Below, piece by piece: positions 31,185 to 51,419 of a stretch of 64,000 nucleotides of DNA. Origin of the DNA: Clostridia bacterium (GTDB lineage: Bacteria; Bacillota; Clostridia; Christensenellales; UBA1242); assembly GCA_900767835.1 (NCBI GenBank), contig CAAGAO010000030.1, positions 26,766-90,765 of the forward strand, read 5' to 3'. The position numbers and the translations under genes were made by a program. The notes below the pieces were generated by a model. That model did no database searches. It saw nothing but the letters and a program-made list of their open reading frames with translations, and was not told where the DNA came from. The stretch's first letter is position 1. The number at the start of each line of letters is the position of its first letter.

Positions 31185-31335
31185 TTTTAATTTTAAGTTT
31201 GTATATTTGTAAAAAACAAAAGCCTTTTGTAGCCGAGAAAGTTACAAAAGGCTTGAAAAGACCATTTATATAAACTTAACCTCGGCAAGCACAAATTGTT
31301 TACGGATTAACTCCACTTGCTGTCTTTGGAAAAGG
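31185..31335 (-). promoter_or_regulatory. L10-leader-like autoregulatory 5' UTR with a terminator hairpin
   Basis: On the minus strand a structured region is followed by the stem agccttttgta/tacaaaaggct plus a U-run (31221-31253), immediately upstream of rplJ. This layout matches the Firmicute L10 leader attenuator. No covariance-model check was possible. Confidence 0.5.
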
Positions 31336-31410
31336 ACATTTATTAATTTACTGAAATAATAATATCACTCTTAATTATGATTGTCAAGCATTTTTCAAAT
31401 ATTTTCTATT

Positions 31411-32312: not shown

Positions 32313-32375
32313 AAATTATAAATAATAATATCAATGAGTTATTTATTTGTCTTTCGCAACAAGTTTAGTATCTGC

Positions 32376-32404
32376 TTGACATTAAAATACTAAAAGATTA
32401 AAAT
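32376..32404 (+). promoter_or_regulatory. metG promoter (TTGACA-17-TAAAAT) with a very short 5' UTR
   Basis: Read directly from the sequence. Only about 20 nt separate the -10 element from the GGAG RBS. Confidence 0.6.
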
Positions 32405-32428
32405 TAGATTAAATTTTTAGGAGAATTT

Positions 32429-35100: not shown

Positions 35101-35129
35101 TTGACAAATTAAAATTATAGGCATATATT
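35101..35129 (+). promoter_or_regulatory. Promoter of the hisS leader (TTGACA-17-TATATT)
   Basis: A perfect -35 hexamer, 17-nt spacer and near-consensus -10 lie about 20 nt upstream of the leader ORF. Confidence 0.65.
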
Positions 35130-35149
35130 AAAAATATAAAGGAATAATT

Positions 35150-35188
35150 ATGAAAAAAATTAACTTTTTACATCATCATATCAACTAA
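35150..35188 (+). CDS. His-rich leader peptide MKKINFLHHHIN (12 codons plus stop)
   Basis: atg aaa aaa att aac ttt tta CAT CAT CAT atc aac taa. A weak AAGGA RBS lies 7 nt upstream. It sits immediately upstream of the alternative hairpins and of hisS. Confidence 0.6.
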   Translation: MKKINFLHHHIN

Positions 35189-35215
35189 ATTGTCTGTTTT
35201 TAATCAGACAAGGTT

Positions 35216-35280
35216 TTGATATGCCTTGACTTAAAAAGTATTTTTAAAGCATCAACGGCATATCGTTGGTGCTTTTTTTG
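35216..35280 (+). promoter_or_regulatory. Attenuator: antiterminator/terminator switch upstream of hisS
   Basis: Terminator: gcatcaac (35249-56) pairs with gttggtgc (35265-72), followed by T7. Antiterminator: gatatgcc+ttga (35218-29) pairs with tcaa..ggcatatc (35252-64). Anti-antiterminator: catatcaa (35177-84, overlapping the last His codon) pairs with ttgatatg (35216-23). Confidence 0.6.
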
Positions 35281-35444
35281 TTAAATAAATTTGCAAAAAC
35301 ATTTATACTTATCTATCATTTTATAAAACAACATAAAAATAGAAAATATTTATCATTTTAATATAGAAATATTTTTGCATAATTAATACATTTTTAAGCA
35401 CCGATTTTTAGATATAAAAAATTAATAAAATAAAAGGGAAATAT

Positions 35445-43784: not shown

Positions 43785-46700
43785 ATGAAAAAAACAATTT
43801 TAAATATATCAAAAATTATTCCAGCAATTTTTGCTTTAATTTCTGGTGTATTACTATTCTCCAGCAAAACAAATACATATGCTGATGAAGTGTCTTCTTT
43901 GCCTTCATATTTTTCTGTATATACTGCAGACTATAACAATTCTGAAGCAACAAAGTATTCCAAGAGAGAAGTAACAGATGTATTCTCAAATGGAGATGCT
44001 ATATTTCTAAAAAACAATCAAGCAGTTGTTTTAGAATTTGAAAAAGATAAACTTTTAATGGCTGATGGAAAAACTTTAAGAATCACTCAAGATATAGGTT
44101 ACACTGTCACTATAAATGGTCAACTTTTATCAACATCTTTAAAACTTGAAAATGGTTTTGATAATATTACTGGAGAAAATGAAGTTTTCAAACTAGCCAT
44201 TAATCCATCAATCGCATCTTTAAATGAATTTAATTATGGTAAATATTCAATAGAGTTTTCATATTGGTATTATGACGATATAGACACAAAAACAGTAAAG
44301 TTTACTTGCAATTTTTATATCTTTAATTATGATGACTATTGCGGAACAATAAACAAAAATTACTCTTTAAATAATAAAGTAAATGGTGCATATTGTTACT
44401 ATTATGATGGTTCAACAACTGATGGTAACTTGTTTAACCTAACTTATAACTACACACACTTTAATGTTAAAATAATTAAAACATATCAACAACTTTCATA
44501 CATTACCGAAGTTAAATATCAAAACAACACCTTAAATATTTTAAACACAAACGAACTTTCACAATCAACCACAACTAATTATGTAAAAATAAATAAAATT
44601 GACGGTACAACTTCCGCTAAAATAACTTTCAATGATATTGGTACATATTATGTTTATTACGAAACCGTTAACCCATATAACAATCAAGAAATATTTAGCG
44701 AGTATTATGAATATACAAACTCAGCCGTTGCCCCAAATACTAGCGACACAATTAATATATTTGGTTATCAATCTTTCTTCACTAGTCAAAATGGGCTAGA
44801 AGAATTTAAACAGGTTGATAGCACTGACGCAAGTGTAGTTAAATATCAAGCAGACGTAACATCTCTTTTAAACAGTGAAAAGAGTGATAACGAAAATTTT
44901 AATATTTTAAAAAATAAATACACTGGTGAAAATGCTTTAAAAATCGTATCAACCAACCAAGCACCAATATATTTTAAGACTAACGCAACTTTAGTTAGAG
45001 AAAAATCTCAATATTACTACTTTAAAGATATTTCTAAATTAACAACACTTCCAACAAATGTTTATTCCGAATTAACCAAAGATGCATATGTTTATAAAAA
45101 TTATTCTTGCACTCCACTTAGCACTGCTGGTATCTATTTAGTTAAACTTTCTTACACTTTTGATAAATATTCAGCAAATACACTAAGTCAATATTTCTTA
45201 TTTGAAATAACTAATAATTCTCCAAAACTTACAATCAATGAATTAATAGTTAGAACAAATGAAACAACTGGCGAAGAAGAAACCATAGAACAAGCAATTC
45301 CAACCGATTATGTTACATATAATGACATAAAAATTGAGAAGACTCAAAGTGGAATATTTGATTCAAAATCAGTATTAAAAATATATAAATCAAAAAACTT
45401 TAATGGTAGTGAACTCAGTGGTAATTATGATCAAATAGTTGAAGATAAAACAACATTAACTGAAAGTGCAAAATATAAAGTCGAATTAACTTATGGAAAT
45501 AAAGACCAAAAAAATTATGTTACATACTTTACTATAGATAAAACAGGTATAAGTGATGTTGCTTTAAACACATTAACCAAGTATTCTGGAACATTATATA
45601 CAAAAGACGGACTTGTAAATTCTTTCTATACAAACCAATCCGTTGCAATTAGTTGGACAAATAAAGAAAAAAGCGGTAAAGCCCAAACATATGCAGAATA
45701 TAAATTTTTCCCAACATCATATTCTTCAACCTTTACAAATACATTAACTTCAGATGTATTAAAAAATTATTATCGTTCACCATACACAACATATGGGATT
45801 CCATCAACTGACACTTTTGCTTATACAACTGGGAATATGCCTGTTTCAACTTACTCAAACACAATTAATTATTCAACTTTAAGCGAAAGCAATATCTTAT
45901 CTCAAAGCGGTTTATATATTGTTAAAATATATGACCAAACTGCTTTAACAAAAGAAGTTGAAGGCGTAAATGTAATTTATAAAGTATTCTTTATAGATAA
46001 AACCAAAACAAATATGGTGGCAGAATTTAATAACGAATGGGCATTTACGGGCGATGCAAAAATCACATCAGCAGATTATACTTTATATTTTGGTTCTCAT
46101 AAAATTATACAATTTGAAAAAATGTTAATAAATGACACAAATCTTGATGAATGGTTAAATTCAAAAGTATTATCAAATGCAACATATTTCAATAATTATT
46201 TTGAAACATACAAAGATAAATTATATTTAAAAATAGATACAAATAATACTATATATTATAGTAAAAATGAAAATAGTAGCATTGTCCCATATTCATATAC
46301 TATAAACGCATCTAATAATTACAGTAAAACCGAAAAAGCAATAGTAAATGGCAAACCTAATGAATCTCAATATATTTTCTATGTAGCATCAAAATCTAAC
46401 ACACAAGTTCAAAATAACTACAATAGTTTTAAAGATTACTATAATAATTGCCATATGGTTACATTCTCAACCGATAACTCAAAAATGGCTTTAACTTATA
46501 AAAATACTGATGGTAACAACTGGAATTTACAACAATTCTATGTTACATCTGTTGATGACAACACAAAATACAATTACTTCCAACCAACAAATGTAAACAC
46601 ATTGACATCAAGTAACGAAATATTAAATTTCTCTTATTGTACTGAACCATCGAATATACTCTCTGTCCAAAGTATAAAAATGGAATATTATTCATTTGAA

Positions 46701-49700
46701 AAAAGTTCTCATGGCACATATGTCTTTAAAACTGACCCTACTTCATCTTTATATATATATCAAAAAGATGGTGTAACTCTTGGAAATCAAATATTAGGCG
46801 AGGCTAATACTTATAGTTGGCAATTAAATGTAGAAAGTTATAATATAACAACAAACCAAACCGCTCAAAGAACAAGAGCAGGTAAGTATGTAATAACAAG
46901 AACATACGAAAATGCTTTAGATTCTAACGACCCAAAAGTTAGAGTATTAATATTTATAGTTGACAGAAATGGAATTATTAGTGCCCCAGAAGTTGACACA
47001 AACGGCAATTCAATTTATTACACTGGCGGTGGAATAAAATTACAAGTATTAAACAATTATCAAAGTATTAAGGATAGCACATTATTCTTCCACGATATAT
47101 ATTTTGCAAATCAAATGTCATCAGTATCTTCTGGTATTTCAAGTCCAGTTTTAACAACAAACCTACTTCCAGTTACATTGTATATCCCAGCATATAAATA
47201 TGGTTATGAACAATTTGCAACAAATACATATAACTATATTTATAAGCAAATGAATGGTAACACTAACAACTTTAATTCAGACGAACAATCAATTGTTGAA
47301 TATTATGATTATAAAGATAAAACATACAAAGCATATGACTCATATAAATTAAACGCATATGTTGAATATAGAAAAACAAATGTTTTAACAACAGCATATG
47401 AGGAAAGATTTGAGTTAAATAAAGTGTTGTCTAACAACTATTTAACAACAAGCACGCAAGAAGGTATTTTAACATTTAATAAAGATGGTTATTATCATGT
47501 AGTTGTTTATTCAAATGGTGGAGACCAATTTACCTTTGACTTTAAAATAGAATATAAAGAACCAGAATATACACTTTTAGATAACAAAAATAATCCTTTA
47601 ACTCCATACGATAACATATATTATACAAATAAACCAATAGTAAGAATTTCTTGGGAAAATTCTCCAAATAAATTCTTAGCAAACATCAACCAAAACGAAA
47701 TCACATACAAAGTATCTAATGGTTTAACTGGTAAAATTAACGCTGACAAGATAATATCTAATGGCGAAAATGGTTACTATGTAGATTTAAATTTAACCGA
47801 ATTAAACGACACATTTGTTCACGGTAGGCAGATTGATATAACTCTACAATTCAATGGTAATAAAGAAGATTATAATAATGAAGCATATTTCTCAAAAACA
47901 ACCTCAATACTTGTAGACTTAGAAGCCCCTATAAAGAATGTATCTTCGTTAGTGAAATTAACTGGTTTAAACTTTAATCAATTACGCGAATATTACTTAG
48001 CAGATGGCGATTCAAGTAGTTTAAGATATAATATGTCAAAGAGTTCTGGGTTATTTGCAAATTACTCATATATATTAGATATAAGCAATTACACAGATTA
48101 TATAAAGACACCAGAAACAAACAATTATGATTTTTATAAAGCATATTACAGAATTTTTGATGTTGACGGTATTAATACAAAATATGTAATAGGTAACACT
48201 CAAGAAAGCGAAATATATCTAGATAACTATAACGACACTTCTGAAAATATTTTGTTTAAAACTAAAGATACTTTTGAAACCTTATTTAAAGCAAATGTTG
48301 GCAAATATATAGAAATAATAGAAGAAGATTATGCTGGTAATCGTACAGTTTACACAATTTATATAACCGATTTATCAAAGAGTAATGAAACAGCAATTGA
48401 ATATAAATCTTTAACATCAACAACTGGTGACACATCAAAAACTATCTCATATAAAGATTTATCACAAAACTTAAATATATATTCAAAATATTCTTTAAAT
48501 TTTGAAAAAGTTGATTTATTAAACAATAATTCATATTTAAGTGGCAGATATTACTTAATTATAAGTGTAAATGGTGAAAAATATATCAAAACACCATTTT
48601 CAAGTGGTAAATTTTACAAAATCTCAAGTTTTGTATCAACTGAAGAAAGTCCTTTATATACATTGCAAGAAATAACAAACCTATCATCTAGTTCTTCATC
48701 ACAACCAATAGTTATTTATTCGGCTCCTGTTTATGGAACAATTACAATTAATGCTTATGTATTAAACAAAGTTCTAGAAACTTATACCCTAGCACAATAC
48801 GAAGGAAGTCAATTAGTAGAAGGTATTATGATAAAATTACCTTCAAACTCAGCAGACGAAAACCGACTTTACGCAACAAACTTAACTGTTTCAGGTGTTA
48901 TTAGTGGTTTAGTAATCAATCCTTTTGTTGTAGATAATGAAAATTATTTTATAACCGAACAACCTACATACACATCTCAAAACTATAAAATTACTTATAT
49001 TACAGGTGTAGGTGGCGAAAAATATTTCCGTTTTGAAGTAATTAGAAGTATTAGTAAAAATGACTACTTTATTTATGAAATAACCGATAATTTTGGCGAA
49101 AAAACTAAAATAACACATATTTTTGGACAAATAGAAATTAAAGATCCAATAACATCAGAAGGCGAAATTATTACATCTTACAAAGATAATGGAGCATATG
49201 TTTATTATTCAAGTGAAAACATTTTATATAAATATGATACAACAATTTATTCATCAACTAATATAACTGTTAGTCACGATGGAATAAACAGAGTTTATAG
49301 AGTAACAAAAGTTGGTTCAAAAATTAAAGTAGAAATTAGAAACAATGATGTTTATACTGAAACTCAAGACTATGCAACATTCTTTAATTGCACTTTAGTT
49401 AATGGCTCTATTATGTATCTTGAATTAAAAGGTGCTGTAATAGAAATTCATAAAGGCAATTTAGGTAATAATTACGAATACTTAGTTCAACTAACTTTAA
49501 ATAGAGATTTTAGTACTGGTGCTACTCAAGATAGCGATTCTAAATATTTCTGTATTTATAATAAAGTTCCTAAAATATCACTTCTAGGTTCAAATGGCGA
49601 TGATGTCACTTCAATTTTAGGTAATAAAGGTGTTTATACTAACAATATCACAATAAATTATGAACAAACTGTTTTAGATTTTAGTTATGAAATGTATTTA

Positions 49701-51419
49701 ATAATTCCAGACGGCACTGTTCTTCGTTTAACTGACGAATATACAGCAAAAGAGAACGGAACATATAGAATAGTTGTAAGTTATTTAGGTGATTTAAAAG
49801 GTATTTCAAAATCTCTATACTTTACAATAAAAAATACTTCAGATTATAAATTCTCAGTTATGAAAATCAACTCAGATGGTTCTTACTCAGAAGTTAATGC
49901 AACTGGTAATTCATTTAGTTATCAAGTAAAAAGCGGTAATAACTCAGCCGTTAAGACCGAACAAGTGCATTATATTGTAAATGGCGATTATACAATTTTA
50001 GTTAACGAAAGTTTAAGTTTAGTTTATGAAACAACCTATGTCGTTGATGACTATACAACTATATATACAATTCATACAAATTACGATAATTTGTCGCTTG
50101 TAGATTTCTTCTCTTGCAGAATTGCTATTACTAAAATTCCTGTAACATATTCAATATTTAAAGAAAATGATTTTGTTGAATATGATAGTACTGGTAACTC
50201 TCAAGACTTAACAAAATCAACATCAATAATTAGTTCTATATACACTAAAGATGGTTACGATACTGGTAGAAAAATTGCTTGGAAATCTTGGTATTTAATT
50301 CCAGAAAACTTAATAAGTGCAACAATTTATTATGGCGAAATTGGTAAGACTGTTTATACCCCAGTTGTTACTAAAAATGATGACTATTTTACAACAACTT
50401 TAAAATCTTCTGGTGTATACTACTTTAAATTTACAGATATTGCTGGCAATTCTCATTTCTTTGGTGCATACTTAGACACAGAATACTTTGCAATAAAATA
50501 TTTAAGTAGTGTTATATTTGAAATTAATGATGAAAACCCAATCAATTATGCAATTTATGATAAAGAAGTAAAAGTAAATATTCCAGAAAATACTTTAGAT
50601 TACTACGATACAAACGCAAAACCAACAATTAATGTAGAATTAAATGGCGAACTTATTACTGTAAAAGCAACATCAAAATACACTTGGAATTTCACTCAAC
50701 AAGGTTTATATAAAATTTGGTTTAGTGCAAAAATTAATGGTGAAAGCATTTATGAAGCACCACTATATTTCACAATTCTAAGTTCTAACGAAACTCGTAC
50801 TGTATTTAATTTTTCATCTTATGGCGATTATTACATTGAAGACATTTTACTTGATGGTGTGTCTGTAAATAGCAAACTTGCAAATTCTAATAATGGTTCA
50901 TTATATAATAATAAGTATTTAAAAGAATTAACATTGCATGTTAACGATTTAAAAACAGGCGAAGGTGTTTGGACATTTGTAATTAACGCAAATAACGAAT
51001 TTAATCAAAAATACACATTCTCTGTATGGATAAATAATCCAACAATACCAATTATTTTGTCACATCAAAATGGTACAAAAACAACCGATTCTATAACAAT
51101 AACTTTCTTAGCATCAAATATTTTAAGCGAAGCAGGAGATTGTATTTTAAAAATTACTGGCGAGAAAGATTTATATATAACTAAAGAAGCATTAGAAAGC
51201 GGAAATTTAACCGAACTTAATGAAATAACTTTAACAGCAACAAGAGAATACTATATTGAAGTTACAACTCTTAGTGGACAATTATTATATAGTTCATATA
51301 TAAATAAAGTTGAACCATTAAATGCAGTTTCTATTATTGTAATTTCTGTTTCATCAGTTGTTTTAGTTGCTGGTGTTGTGTTATTCATCTTACTTCGTAA
51401 AAAGATGAAAATAAAATAA
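43785..51419 (+). CDS. Giant (2544 aa) surface protein with an N-terminal signal peptide and a C-terminal TM anchor
   Basis: Signal peptide MKKTILNISKIIPAIFALISGVLLFSSKTNTYA. N/T/Y/S/K-rich beta-type composition throughout. The C-terminal end is VSIIVISVSSVVLVAGVVLFILLRKKMKIK. No LPXTG motif is present. Confidence 0.8.
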   Translation: MKKTILNISKIIPAIFALISGVLLFSSKTNTYADEVSSLPSYFSVYTADYNNSEATKYSKREVTDVFSNGDAIFLKNNQAVVLEFEKDKLLMADGKTLRITQDIGYTVTINGQLLSTSLKLENGFDNITGENEVFKLAINPSIASLNEFNYGKYSIEFSYWYYDDIDTKTVKFTCNFYIFNYDDYCGTINKNYSLNNKVNGAYCYYYDGSTTDGNLFNLTYNYTHFNVKIIKTYQQLSYITEVKYQNNTLNILNTNELSQSTTTNYVKINKIDGTTSAKITFNDIGTYYVYYETVNPYNNQEIFSEYYEYTNSAVAPNTSDTINIFGYQSFFTSQNGLEEFKQVDSTDASVVKYQADVTSLLNSEKSDNENFNILKNKYTGENALKIVSTNQAPIYFKTNATLVREKSQYYYFKDISKLTTLPTNVYSELTKDAYVYKNYSCTPLSTAGIYLVKLSYTFDKYSANTLSQYFLFEITNNSPKLTINELIVRTNETTGEEETIEQAIPTDYVTYNDIKIEKTQSGIFDSKSVLKIYKSKNFNGSELSGNYDQIVEDKTTLTESAKYKVELTYGNKDQKNYVTYFTIDKTGISDVALNTLTKYSGTLYTKDGLVNSFYTNQSVAISWTNKEKSGKAQTYAEYKFFPTSYSSTFTNTLTSDVLKNYYRSPYTTYGIPSTDTFAYTTGNMPVSTYSNTINYSTLSESNILSQSGLYIVKIYDQTALTKEVEGVNVIYKVFFIDKTKTNMVAEFNNEWAFTGDAKITSADYTLYFGSHKIIQFEKMLINDTNLDEWLNSKVLSNATYFNNYFETYKDKLYLKIDTNNTIYYSKNENSSIVPYSYTINASNNYSKTEKAIVNGKPNESQYIFYVASKSNTQVQNNYNSFKDYYNNCHMVTFSTDNSKMALTYKNTDGNNWNLQQFYVTSVDDNTKYNYFQPTNVNTLTSSNEILNFSYCTEPSNILSVQSIKMEYYSFEKSSHGTYVFKTDPTSSLYIYQKDGVTLGNQILGEANTYSWQLNVESYNITTNQTAQRTRAGKYVITRTYENALDSNDPKVRVLIFIVDRNGIISAPEVDTNGNSIYYTGGGIKLQVLNNYQSIKDSTLFFHDIYFANQMSSVSSGISSPVLTTNLLPVTLYIPAYKYGYEQFATNTYNYIYKQMNGNTNNFNSDEQSIVEYYDYKDKTYKAYDSYKLNAYVEYRKTNVLTTAYEERFELNKVLSNNYLTTSTQEGILTFNKDGYYHVVVYSNGGDQFTFDFKIEYKEPEYTLLDNKNNPLTPYDNIYYTNKPIVRISWENSPNKFLANINQNEITYKVSNGLTGKINADKIISNGENGYYVDLNLTELNDTFVHGRQIDITLQFNGNKEDYNNEAYFSKTTSILVDLEAPIKNVSSLVKLTGLNFNQLREYYLADGDSSSLRYNMSKSSGLFANYSYILDISNYTDYIKTPETNNYDFYKAYYRIFDVDGINTKYVIGNTQESEIYLDNYNDTSENILFKTKDTFETLFKANVGKYIEIIEEDYAGNRTVYTIYITDLSKSNETAIEYKSLTSTTGDTSKTISYKDLSQNLNIYSKYSLNFEKVDLLNNNSYLSGRYYLIISVNGEKYIKTPFSSGKFYKISSFVSTEESPLYTLQEITNLSSSSSSQPIVIYSAPVYGTITINAYVLNKVLETYTLAQYEGSQLVEGIMIKLPSNSADENRLYATNLTVSGVISGLVINPFVVDNENYFITEQPTYTSQNYKITYITGVGGEKYFRFEVIRSISKNDYFIYEITDNFGEKTKITHIFGQIEIKDPITSEGEIITSYKDNGAYVYYSSENILYKYDTTIYSSTNITVSHDGINRVYRVTKVGSKIKVEIRNNDVYTETQDYATFFNCTLVNGSIMYLELKGAVIEIHKGNLGNNYEYLVQLTLNRDFSTGATQDSDSKYFCIYNKVPKISLLGSNGDDVTSILGNKGVYTNNITINYEQTVLDFSYEMYLIIPDGTVLRLTDEYTAKENGTYRIVVSYLGDLKGISKSLYFTIKNTSDYKFSVMKINSDGSYSEVNATGNSFSYQVKSGNNSAVKTEQVHYIVNGDYTILVNESLSLVYETTYVVDDYTTIYTIHTNYDNLSLVDFFSCRIAITKIPVTYSIFKENDFVEYDSTGNSQDLTKSTSIISSIYTKDGYDTGRKIAWKSWYLIPENLISATIYYGEIGKTVYTPVVTKNDDYFTTTLKSSGVYYFKFTDIAGNSHFFGAYLDTEYFAIKYLSSVIFEINDENPINYAIYDKEVKVNIPENTLDYYDTNAKPTINVELNGELITVKATSKYTWNFTQQGLYKIWFSAKINGESIYEAPLYFTILSSNETRTVFNFSSYGDYYIEDILLDGVSVNSKLANSNNGSLYNNKYLKELTLHVNDLKTGEGVWTFVINANNEFNQKYTFSVWINNPTIPIILSHQNGTKTTDSITITFLASNILSEAGDCILKITGEKDLYITKEALESGNLTELNEITLTATREYYIEVTTLSGQLLYSSYINKVEPLNAVSIIVISVSSVVLVAGVVLFILLRKKMKIK

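Follow-up and report, generated by a model that had tools for sequence, protein, structure and literature searches.

The hisS locus and its leader

The 64-kb stretch of DNA analyzed here (the window; ~28% G+C), from contig CAAGAO010000030.1 of a Clostridia bacterium, encodes a histidyl-tRNA synthetase, HisS, whose gene is preceded by a structured leader with a short open reading frame (ORF) that contains three tandem histidine codons. The original prediction, made from the sequence, had interpreted this leader as a ribosome-stalling attenuator standing where a T-box would be expected. Homologs of the protein carry the Pfam domains tRNA-synt_His and HGTP_anticodon and are named histidine--tRNA ligase in their source database; hisS of the window ends with TGA as stop codon. 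The leader and the gene downstream of it comprise the following features.

35101-35129, plus strand: leader promoter, with -35 TTGACA at 35101-35106, a 17-nt spacer and -10 TATATT at 35124-35129 (11/12 match)
35138-35144, plus strand: ribosome-binding site (RBS), the Shine-Dalgarno-like, purine-rich AAAGGAA, 5 nt upstream of the leader ATG, as read from the sequence
35150-35188, plus strand: leader ORF MKKINFLHHHIN*, 12 codons, with ATG at 35150 and TAA at 35186-35188
35163-35184, plus strand: region 1, which covers the codons for Asn-Phe-Leu-His-His-His-Ile and supplies the 5' strand of the anti-antiterminator; its partner in the minimum free energy (MFE) structure is 35216-35239
35190-35211, plus strand: post-ORF hairpin with a 7-bp stem (35190-96 / 35205-11), followed by a conserved GGUUUU
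35216-35239, plus strand: region 2, partner of either region 1 or region 3, with the nearly invariant core GGUUUUGAUAUGCCUUGA
35247-35264, plus strand: region 3, antiterminator 3' strand (with 35218-35232) and terminator 5' strand
35246-35282, plus strand: intrinsic terminator, stem 35246-57 / 35264-75, 6-nt loop, U-run to 35279, then G and UU
35445-36728, plus strand: hisS, histidyl-tRNA synthetase of 427 aa, the gene under the proposed regulation, with ATG at 35445, 165 nt past the T-run

The promoter TTGACA-17-TATATT is the top-scoring promoter-like site between 34000 and 37000, and the His codons of the ORF, CAT CAT CAT, occupy 35171-35179. Two bases past the stop codon begins the post-ORF hairpin, which is nested inside the helix formed by regions 1 and 2 (helix 1:2). 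Seven T (35273-35279) come after the terminator stem of 12-13 bp (13 pairs, 35246-35275, as called by the scanner). Six terminator-like sites were counted over the surrounding 3 kb, as compared to 0.9 expected. By sequence, the leader thus unites the features of an attenuator, i.e., a translatable ORF, tandem codons for the cognate amino acid, a Rho-independent terminator, and overlap between antiterminator and anti-antiterminator.

Re-reading of the sequence placed the promoter, the 12-codon ORF and the three CAT codons at the coordinates first given, and the three pairings put forward at the time are base-exact: 35177-84 with 35216-23 (1:2), 35218-29 with 35252-64 (2:3, with C35256 bulged), and 35249-56 with 35265-72 followed by the seven T (3:4). 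The distance of 165 nt between T-run and hisS was likewise accurate. The extent of the helices needed revision, as helix 1:2 is much longer than 8 bp (35163-35184 with 35216-35239), and the otherwise correct layout had overlooked the post-ORF hairpin.

Conservation of the leader in related genomes

Relatives of HisS in a large protein collection form an identity series of 99, 87, 86, 78, 77, 75, 73, 72, 70, 69% and onward, and their loci were obtained as contigs fetched for the protein-search matches; some of these relatives are called 'Clostridiales bacterium' MAGs by their sources. An equivalent leader lies upstream of hisS in seven further distinct metagenomic relatives, with HisS 69-86% identical to that of the window; these and the window leader are referred to below as the eight homologs. 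Scans for HisS in public species-representative genomes and Joint Genome Institute metagenomes returned relatives of at most 61% identity and one partial sequence of 70%, with the leader in none of them. The relatives with the leader are listed with their leader peptides.

L161, HisS 86% identical: MKKINFLHHHIN
L167, HisS 77% identical: MKNLVFLHHHII
L173, HisS 75% identical: MEKIIYLHHHI
L164/165/166, HisS 73% identical: MKNISFLHHHIK
L174/175, HisS 72% identical: MKTFTFLHHHI
L168-170, HisS 70% identical: MKFYNFNHHHNF
L171, HisS 69% identical: MTQIKFLHHHI

All eight homologs possess a perfect TTGACA, a 16-17-nt spacer and a -10-like hexamer 19-53 nt upstream of the leader ATG, as well as an AGG- or GGA-containing purine run at the RBS position. 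The ATG, CAUCAUCAU and the codons CAU-CAU-CAU are invariant, the ORF measures 11-12 codons without a single indel while the non-coding parts downstream are rich in indels, and an in-frame stop follows one to three codons past the His run. The N-terminal residues of the leader peptide vary freely, as expected where the sole job of a peptide is being translated. Alignment of the upstream regions, which had been named as a check on the original prediction, hence revealed a conserved HHH-encoding ORF, and it contains compensatory changes in the post-ORF hairpin, the terminator, and the outer pairs of helix 1:2.

The genomic neighborhood is conserved across the relatives and consists of an ORF of 126 aa, metG and hisS, often with tRNA-His and leuS. 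In L164 (2375-2465), and also in L165 and L166, a GC-rich palindromic insertion of ~95 nt is located between terminator and hisS; the other homologs are without it, and it may represent a repeat or a mobile element of small size.

Covariation and alternative folds

A covariance model built on the terminated conformation of the window clade (R1) re-finds the eight leaders at 84-156 bits and has no other match over the 64-kb window, save a weak one on the reverse strand that echoes the palindromic terminator. Matches of R1 and its second iteration, R2, to the leader occurred only upstream of hisS. Across the eight sequences, 89.7% of the terminated structure is paired, as compared to 35-48% when the partners are slid by one to three columns, with double-sided changes in 10 pairs and a covariation score of 0.263 (0.04-0.10 in the slid controls). 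Helix 1:2 is paired in about 85-89% of cells, and three outer pairs covary. Of all helices, the post-ORF hairpin provides the most information: pairing is kept in 96% of cells, four of seven pairs covary, and its stem was swapped outright between homologs without loss of pairing (GUCUG/CAGAC, GCAA/UUGC, GCUCUU/AAGAGC, GCCUUA/UAAGGC). The terminator exchanges G-C for A-U and C-G for U-A, and 3/12 of its pairs covary. With three more distant leaders added (L011, L045 and L068; 11 sequences), covariation extends to 7/7 pairs of the post-ORF hairpin, 6/12 of the terminator, and 21/38 overall, and none of 500 shuffles reached any of five measures. The antiterminator core (35221-29 / 35252-61) is 91.7% paired, as compared to 14-49% in slid controls.

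The leader of the window (35136-35285) folds with an MFE of -41.3 kcal/mol, whereas 200 dinucleotide shuffles average -20.2 +/- 3.1 kcal/mol and none is as good (z = -6.82). The unconstrained MFE structure of the free leader is helix 1:2 with its nested hairpin plus the terminator in all eight homologs. A stalled ribosome was mimicked by masking ~30 nt around the His codons and cutting the transcript off immediately ahead of the terminator 3' arm; in this masked and shortened transcript, the 2:3 antiterminator formed in all eight. Folding with and without a mask over the His codons, another of the checks set out beforehand, therefore yielded the alternative structures that had been anticipated. 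The energies of the three structures rank helix 1:2 as the most stable across the homologs, followed by terminator and antiterminator at about the same level.

Helix 1:2 block: -17 to -24 kcal/mol in the homologs, -24.3 kcal/mol in the window
Terminator: -10 to -15.5 kcal/mol in the homologs, -15.5 kcal/mol in the window
Antiterminator: -7 to -17 kcal/mol in the homologs, -10.9 kcal/mol in the window

These data bear on the simplest alternative, namely that a short ORF in AT-rich DNA has come to pair by chance with an ordinary terminator and serves no regulatory function. Short ORFs are abundant in AT-rich DNA, and (CAY)3 runs are not rare (0.058 per kb, which corresponds to ~4 expected upstream of ~160 distant loci). 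A fold at z = -6.8 relative to shuffled sequences, conservation of the whole unit at HisS identities of 69-86% with compensatory changes, and the confinement of covariance model matches to hisS upstream regions nevertheless make a chance origin extremely improbable.

A probable ribosome-mediated attenuator of hisS

It is likely that the hisS leader is a classical ribosome-mediated (leader-peptide) transcription attenuator, through which hisS would be transcribed according to how much charged tRNA-His is available. Both the comparisons and the folds of the eight homologs support this interpretation, which is also that of the original prediction: no sequence element is missing, conservation and covariation are seen in the relatives, the folds are mutually exclusive, and no conserved promoter bypasses them. 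Translation of the ORF, stalling at its His codons, and the kinetic order of folding are inferred.

Briefly, transcription would start at the 35101-35129 promoter and a ribosome would translate the 12-codon leader. If His-tRNA-His is plentiful, the ribosome would finish and leave; region 1 (35163-84) and region 2 (35216-39) would then pair, with an energy of about -24 kcal/mol if the nested hairpin is counted, and region 3, left free, would combine with region 4 into the terminator (35246-75 plus the U-run), such that transcription would stop ~165 nt before hisS. The outcome would be the same if no ribosome is loaded. If His-tRNA-His is scarce, the ribosome would stall at CAU-CAU-CAU and cover region 1, region 2 would capture region 3 upon its emergence, no terminator would form, and RNA polymerase (RNAP) would read into hisS. 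More histidyl-tRNA synthetase would then restore charging. The molecule that the leader would sense is tRNA-His (GUG), encoded at 36912-36988.

Several observations weigh against this interpretation. The antiterminator arms are nearly invariant and contain one covarying pair, i.e., the helix is supported by conservation and complementarity and not by covariation; given that regions 2 and 3 each pair with two partners, invariance is the signature expected there. Fitting of the structural alignments to the model biases them towards it. The antiterminator of the window (-10.9 kcal/mol) is less stable than its terminator (-15.5 kcal/mol), and in the masked full-length RNA the terminator is still part of the MFE structure in four of the eight homologs, the window included. 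Because the terminator is thermodynamically favored in these four, read-through would rely on the antiterminator forming first, that is, on co-transcriptional order, which is a property shared with other attenuators. If a ribosome is parked on the stop codon, region 2 stays uncovered, and folding then predicts the 2:3 helix for 7/8 homologs; efficient termination would consequently need a pause, or release of the ribosome prior to synthesis of region 3. It is plausible that the hairpin at 35190-35211 and the GGUUUU between ORF and region 2 supply this timing as an RNAP pause device, a nucleation device for helix 1:2, or both. Timing between ribosome and RNAP would be less automatic in Bacillota with runaway transcription of the type described for B. 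subtilis (PMC13323073). Ribosome-mediated transcription attenuation is functional in B. subtilis despite its runaway transcription, as reported for bmrCD (PMC4191407) and yxjB (PMC6851288).

The distribution of the leader is a further point of this kind. L162/163 (HisS 78%) are without it and their hisS starts 12 nt after metG, and it is also absent in L172 (67%), L176-178 (68%) and L090 (70%), as well as in L179-184 (64-65%) and L001-L004. Absence from equally close relatives indicates a clade-restricted element that can be lost.

Lastly, the 165-nt spacer of the window holds a weak promoter-like site, TTGCAA-17-TATCAT (9/12, 35291-35319), a possible source of basal or bypass hisS transcription in the window genome. 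Were hisS of the window transcribed mainly from a second promoter at ~35291-35319, the leader would give rise to a short terminated RNA with a minor role in control or an action in trans as small RNA (sRNA) or peptide. Such a proposal would accommodate the basal expression required of an essential gene that its terminator keeps off by default, and trans-acting attenuator RNAs are known, e.g., rnTrpL/peTrpL (PMC7968998). However, the match is marginal and situated in an AT-rich spacer, 22 such sites occur in the 3 kb examined as compared to 17.4 expected, and the site is conserved neither in L161 nor in other relatives. Promoter-like matches in the spacer, all marginal (9/12), are present in three of the eight sequences at positions that are not homologous, and no conserved second promoter was found between terminator and hisS among the eight homologs. 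Five of the eight spacers are without a promoter-like site, and three of them extend over merely 13 nt (L168), 33 nt (L173) and 40 nt (L171), such that in these genomes transcription of hisS must pass the terminator. Transcription mainly from a second promoter is therefore unlikely.

Searches for T-boxes and other RNA families

Genes for aminoacyl-tRNA synthetases (aaRS) of Bacillota are usually described as T-box regulated. Neither the T-box (RF00230) nor the His_leader (RF00514) family matched the window at gathering score across its 64 kb, or the segment 34600-35600 at E <= 10, which bears out the earlier claim that no T-box is located at the hisS leader. T-boxes were also missing from 20 hisS loci that include all leader homologs, and from the region upstream of hisS in all 40 loci scanned (relatives and other Clostridia-type metagenome-assembled genomes (MAGs)). 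The model does detect T-boxes elsewhere, namely four in Tissierellia-type loci, each downstream of hisS. These T-box leaders lie immediately 3' of hisS (L014:1746-1950, L022:3858-4055, L025:3637-3830, L027:3458-3664) and presumably control the next gene. Other Rfam families matched the leader weakly at E <= 10 (Burkholderia sRNAs, small nucleolar RNAs); none is relevant, and these matches reflect a generic hairpin-plus-terminator shape.

The leader had also been described as an unusual replacement of an expected T-box. The absence of the T-box holds, but the expectation was overstated: with none upstream of hisS in 40 loci and none at metG and leuS, the T-box is not the local norm, and there are precedents for leader-peptide control. 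The upstream regions of metG and leuS (32340-32428 and 41036-41110, minus strand) have plain TTGACA-type promoters without T-box or leader ORF. When the window was scanned for short ORFs that combine an RBS with an amino-acid triplet, the hisS leader was the only one outside long ORFs. The possibility that aaRS genes throughout the lineage have switched to leader peptides was considered and rejected for the window, given the plain promoters of metG and leuS and the hisS leader as the sole candidate.

The same searches inform a different view of the signal, in which leader structure and terminator are genuine, but what is sensed, in the manner of a T-box or riboswitch, is a protein, tRNA or small ligand, and the ORF is incidental. 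In agreement with this, the RNA helices themselves are conserved and covary, the His codons lie inside helix 1:2 such that their conservation may partly reflect pairing rather than decoding, and RNA-sensing leaders are usual in Bacillota (PMC1262725). Yet no T-box, His_leader or other relevant Rfam match was obtained even at E <= 10, and the leader has no large conserved unpaired pocket typical of ligand binders. RBS, ATG, in-frame stop and an indel-free ORF are conserved in 8/8 homologs amid flanking RNA that is rich in indels, and dissimilar leaders of other hisS genes also have an ORF encoding HHH or HHHH. We thus regard direct sensing of a ligand, protein or tRNA as quite improbable.

Histidine-codon leaders at distant hisS loci

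All fetched hisS loci were scanned for short ORFs with at least three consecutive His codons. Six loci beyond the window clade have leaders, each with promoter, RBS, terminator and an alternative pairing that overlaps the His codons.

L011:2285-2437, 'Clostridia' MAG, rabbit gut: MKIQSNSNIHTHHHIYSMSAS
L045:785-930, 'Clostridia' MAG, rabbit gut: MEKFNLQKVLTHHHNYSMSAL
L051:2224-2380, 'Clostridia' MAG, Hadza human gut: MKNLVKNIKLHHHCRSTCIA
L103:1167-1316, metagenome contig: MKRNIINKKLHHHCRSTCIA
L068:2287-2404, Christensenellales MAG: MIKMSLRHHHR
L005:2013-2120, Bacillota MAG: MHHHHARIAVCGF

These distant leaders are dissimilar in sequence to those of the window clade and also carry HHH or HHHH (four leader types). 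In L068, the layout of the post-ORF hairpin matches that of the window, and in L005 a small ORF is located between terminator and hisS. Although trained on the window clade alone, R1 matches the leaders of L045, L011 and L068 exactly, with 40-44 bits (E ~1e-4), and these three share a UGCC...GGCA antiterminator core with the window clade. R2 added no new member except L103 among ~170 other hisS loci. ATG, His codons and terminator are generic features that raise the score of the model, and the leaders of L011/L045, L068 and the like may be either distant homologs or convergent designs. Upstream of the ~160 distant hisS genes, about seven to eight (CAY)3 runs were observed versus the ~4 expected from background; this excess is modest, and the case for distant leaders hence rests on the ORF, the terminator, the alternative pairing, and pairs of homologs. 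Separately, a conserved 47-aa ORF that ends in HHH lies ~255 nt upstream of hisS in L085 (1090-1233) and L092 (1085-1228) and is too long for a typical leader.

It is conceivable, if somewhat doubtful, that several deep, uncultured lineages of the Clostridia type have their housekeeping hisS under the control of an old RNA family outside Rfam. Candidate members are the window clade, L011/L045, L068, and perhaps L051/L103. Common to the candidate family are the UGCC...GGCA antiterminator core and the post-ORF hairpin. If such a family exists, translation-coupled sensing would replace the hisS T-box in these lineages, and coordination of ribosome and RNAP, probably via a pause at the hairpin and GGUUUU, would operate in Bacillota, where transcription is otherwise thought to run ahead.

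Neighborhood of hisS in the window

The following features and side observations surround the leader and hisS in the window.

36912-36988, plus strand: tRNA-His (GUG), 184 nt downstream of hisS, with its own near-consensus promoter TTGACA-16-GATAAT at 36870-36897
36766-36799: long GC-rich hairpin (GCGGGGAAACC...GGTTTTTCCCGC) past the hisS stop codon, without T-run
36995-37071, 37083-37159 and 37339-37415: three copies of a 77-nt direct repeat 3' of tRNA-His, 73-78% identical to the reference copy
31207-31347, minus strand: ribosomal protein L10 leader (RF00557, 76 bits) upstream of an rplJ-like ORF
43785-51419, plus strand: very long ORF of 2544 aa

A tRNA is also found 3' of hisS in L161, L162, L168, L174, L002 and L003, and tRNA-His is located 5' of hisS in L179/L182; in gene order, the synthetase and its tRNA form a conserved pair. 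The hairpin at 36766-36799 could serve either termination of hisS transcription or read-through into tRNA-His. Each copy of the 77-nt repeat contains an inverted repeat ending in a T-run, which resembles a small repeated terminator or an element of the repetitive extragenic palindrome or miniature inverted-repeat transposable element type.

Comparison with known systems

Attenuation of pheST is well established and was reportedly described by Springer et al. in 1985. Leader-peptide attenuation of aaRS genes is known for pheST in gamma-proteobacteria (PMC4082710) and was predicted for trpS/leuS of Streptomyces in a 2005 survey, according to which no aaRS gene of Firmicutes was known to be under classical attenuation (PMC1262725). 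Naville & Gautheret later predicted that in bacilli a His leader peptide precedes a hisS paralog and hisZ; the paralog was the first predicted exception to the T-box picture, and hisS was called a striking case of switching between sensing systems (PMC2965389, published in 2010). Ashniev et al. (2022) described His-leader attenuators with three to five His codons at his operons of three Firmicutes lineages, none of which matches RF00514 (PMC9413887).

The leader of the window resembles the hisS T-box of Bacillus (RF00230) in the gene controlled, in the proposed signal (uncharged versus charged tRNA-His), and in its terminator/antiterminator output. In a T-box, however, tRNA is sensed by direct contact with specifier codon and T-box bulge, without translation, and the T-box model does not match here. 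Enterobacterial hisL (RF00514) likewise has a run of His codons in a short ORF and alternative hairpins leading to an intrinsic terminator, and senses charged tRNA-His, but it controls histidine biosynthesis instead of hisS, possesses seven His codons and a six-segment structure, and gives no match in the window. In the Bacillus cereus group, the leaders of hisS* and hisZ also combine a His-codon ORF with a premature terminator before a hisS-family gene of Firmicutes, and were presented as a switch from the T-box. As far as their description allows comparison, hisS* is an extra paralog beside a T-box-controlled hisS, whereas the window leader precedes the syntenic copy of a metG-hisS-tRNA-His locus. 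The his leaders of the Bacillus cereus group, Peptostreptococcaceae and Erysipelotrichales share with it a run of three to five His codons, attenuator, antiterminator and terminator hairpins, and the lack of a match to RF00514; by description, they differ in that they precede biosynthesis and transport genes in other lineages. There is also a likeness in function to pheST (pheM) of Escherichia coli, where a leader peptide governs terminator and antiterminator of an aaRS gene and cognate codons cause induction at poor charging. Amino acid, phylum and sequence differ, pheM has five Phe codons as compared to three His codons here, and homology is not expected.

The mechanism proposed for the hisS leader is thus classical (trp, his, pheST), and this element leaves the known mechanism unchanged. 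Its novelty lies in the combination of gene and lineage, i.e., a syntenic, apparently housekeeping hisS in an uncultured low-GC gut lineage, although an earlier mention in the survey of aaRS attenuation by Lopatovskaya et al. (2010) is possible; the hint of a broader family of hisS leaders is also new. Relative to the hisS paralog predicted in bacilli in 2010, the window provides a well-conserved, covariation-supported case on an apparent housekeeping hisS, and comparable leaders in other Clostridia MAGs suggest that the solution is recurrent or old. The alignment is a ready seed for a new RNA family and a marker of His-tRNA-His sensing in genomes without T-boxes, and with ~145 nt the leader is a compact test case for synchrony of leader translation and transcription in Bacillota.

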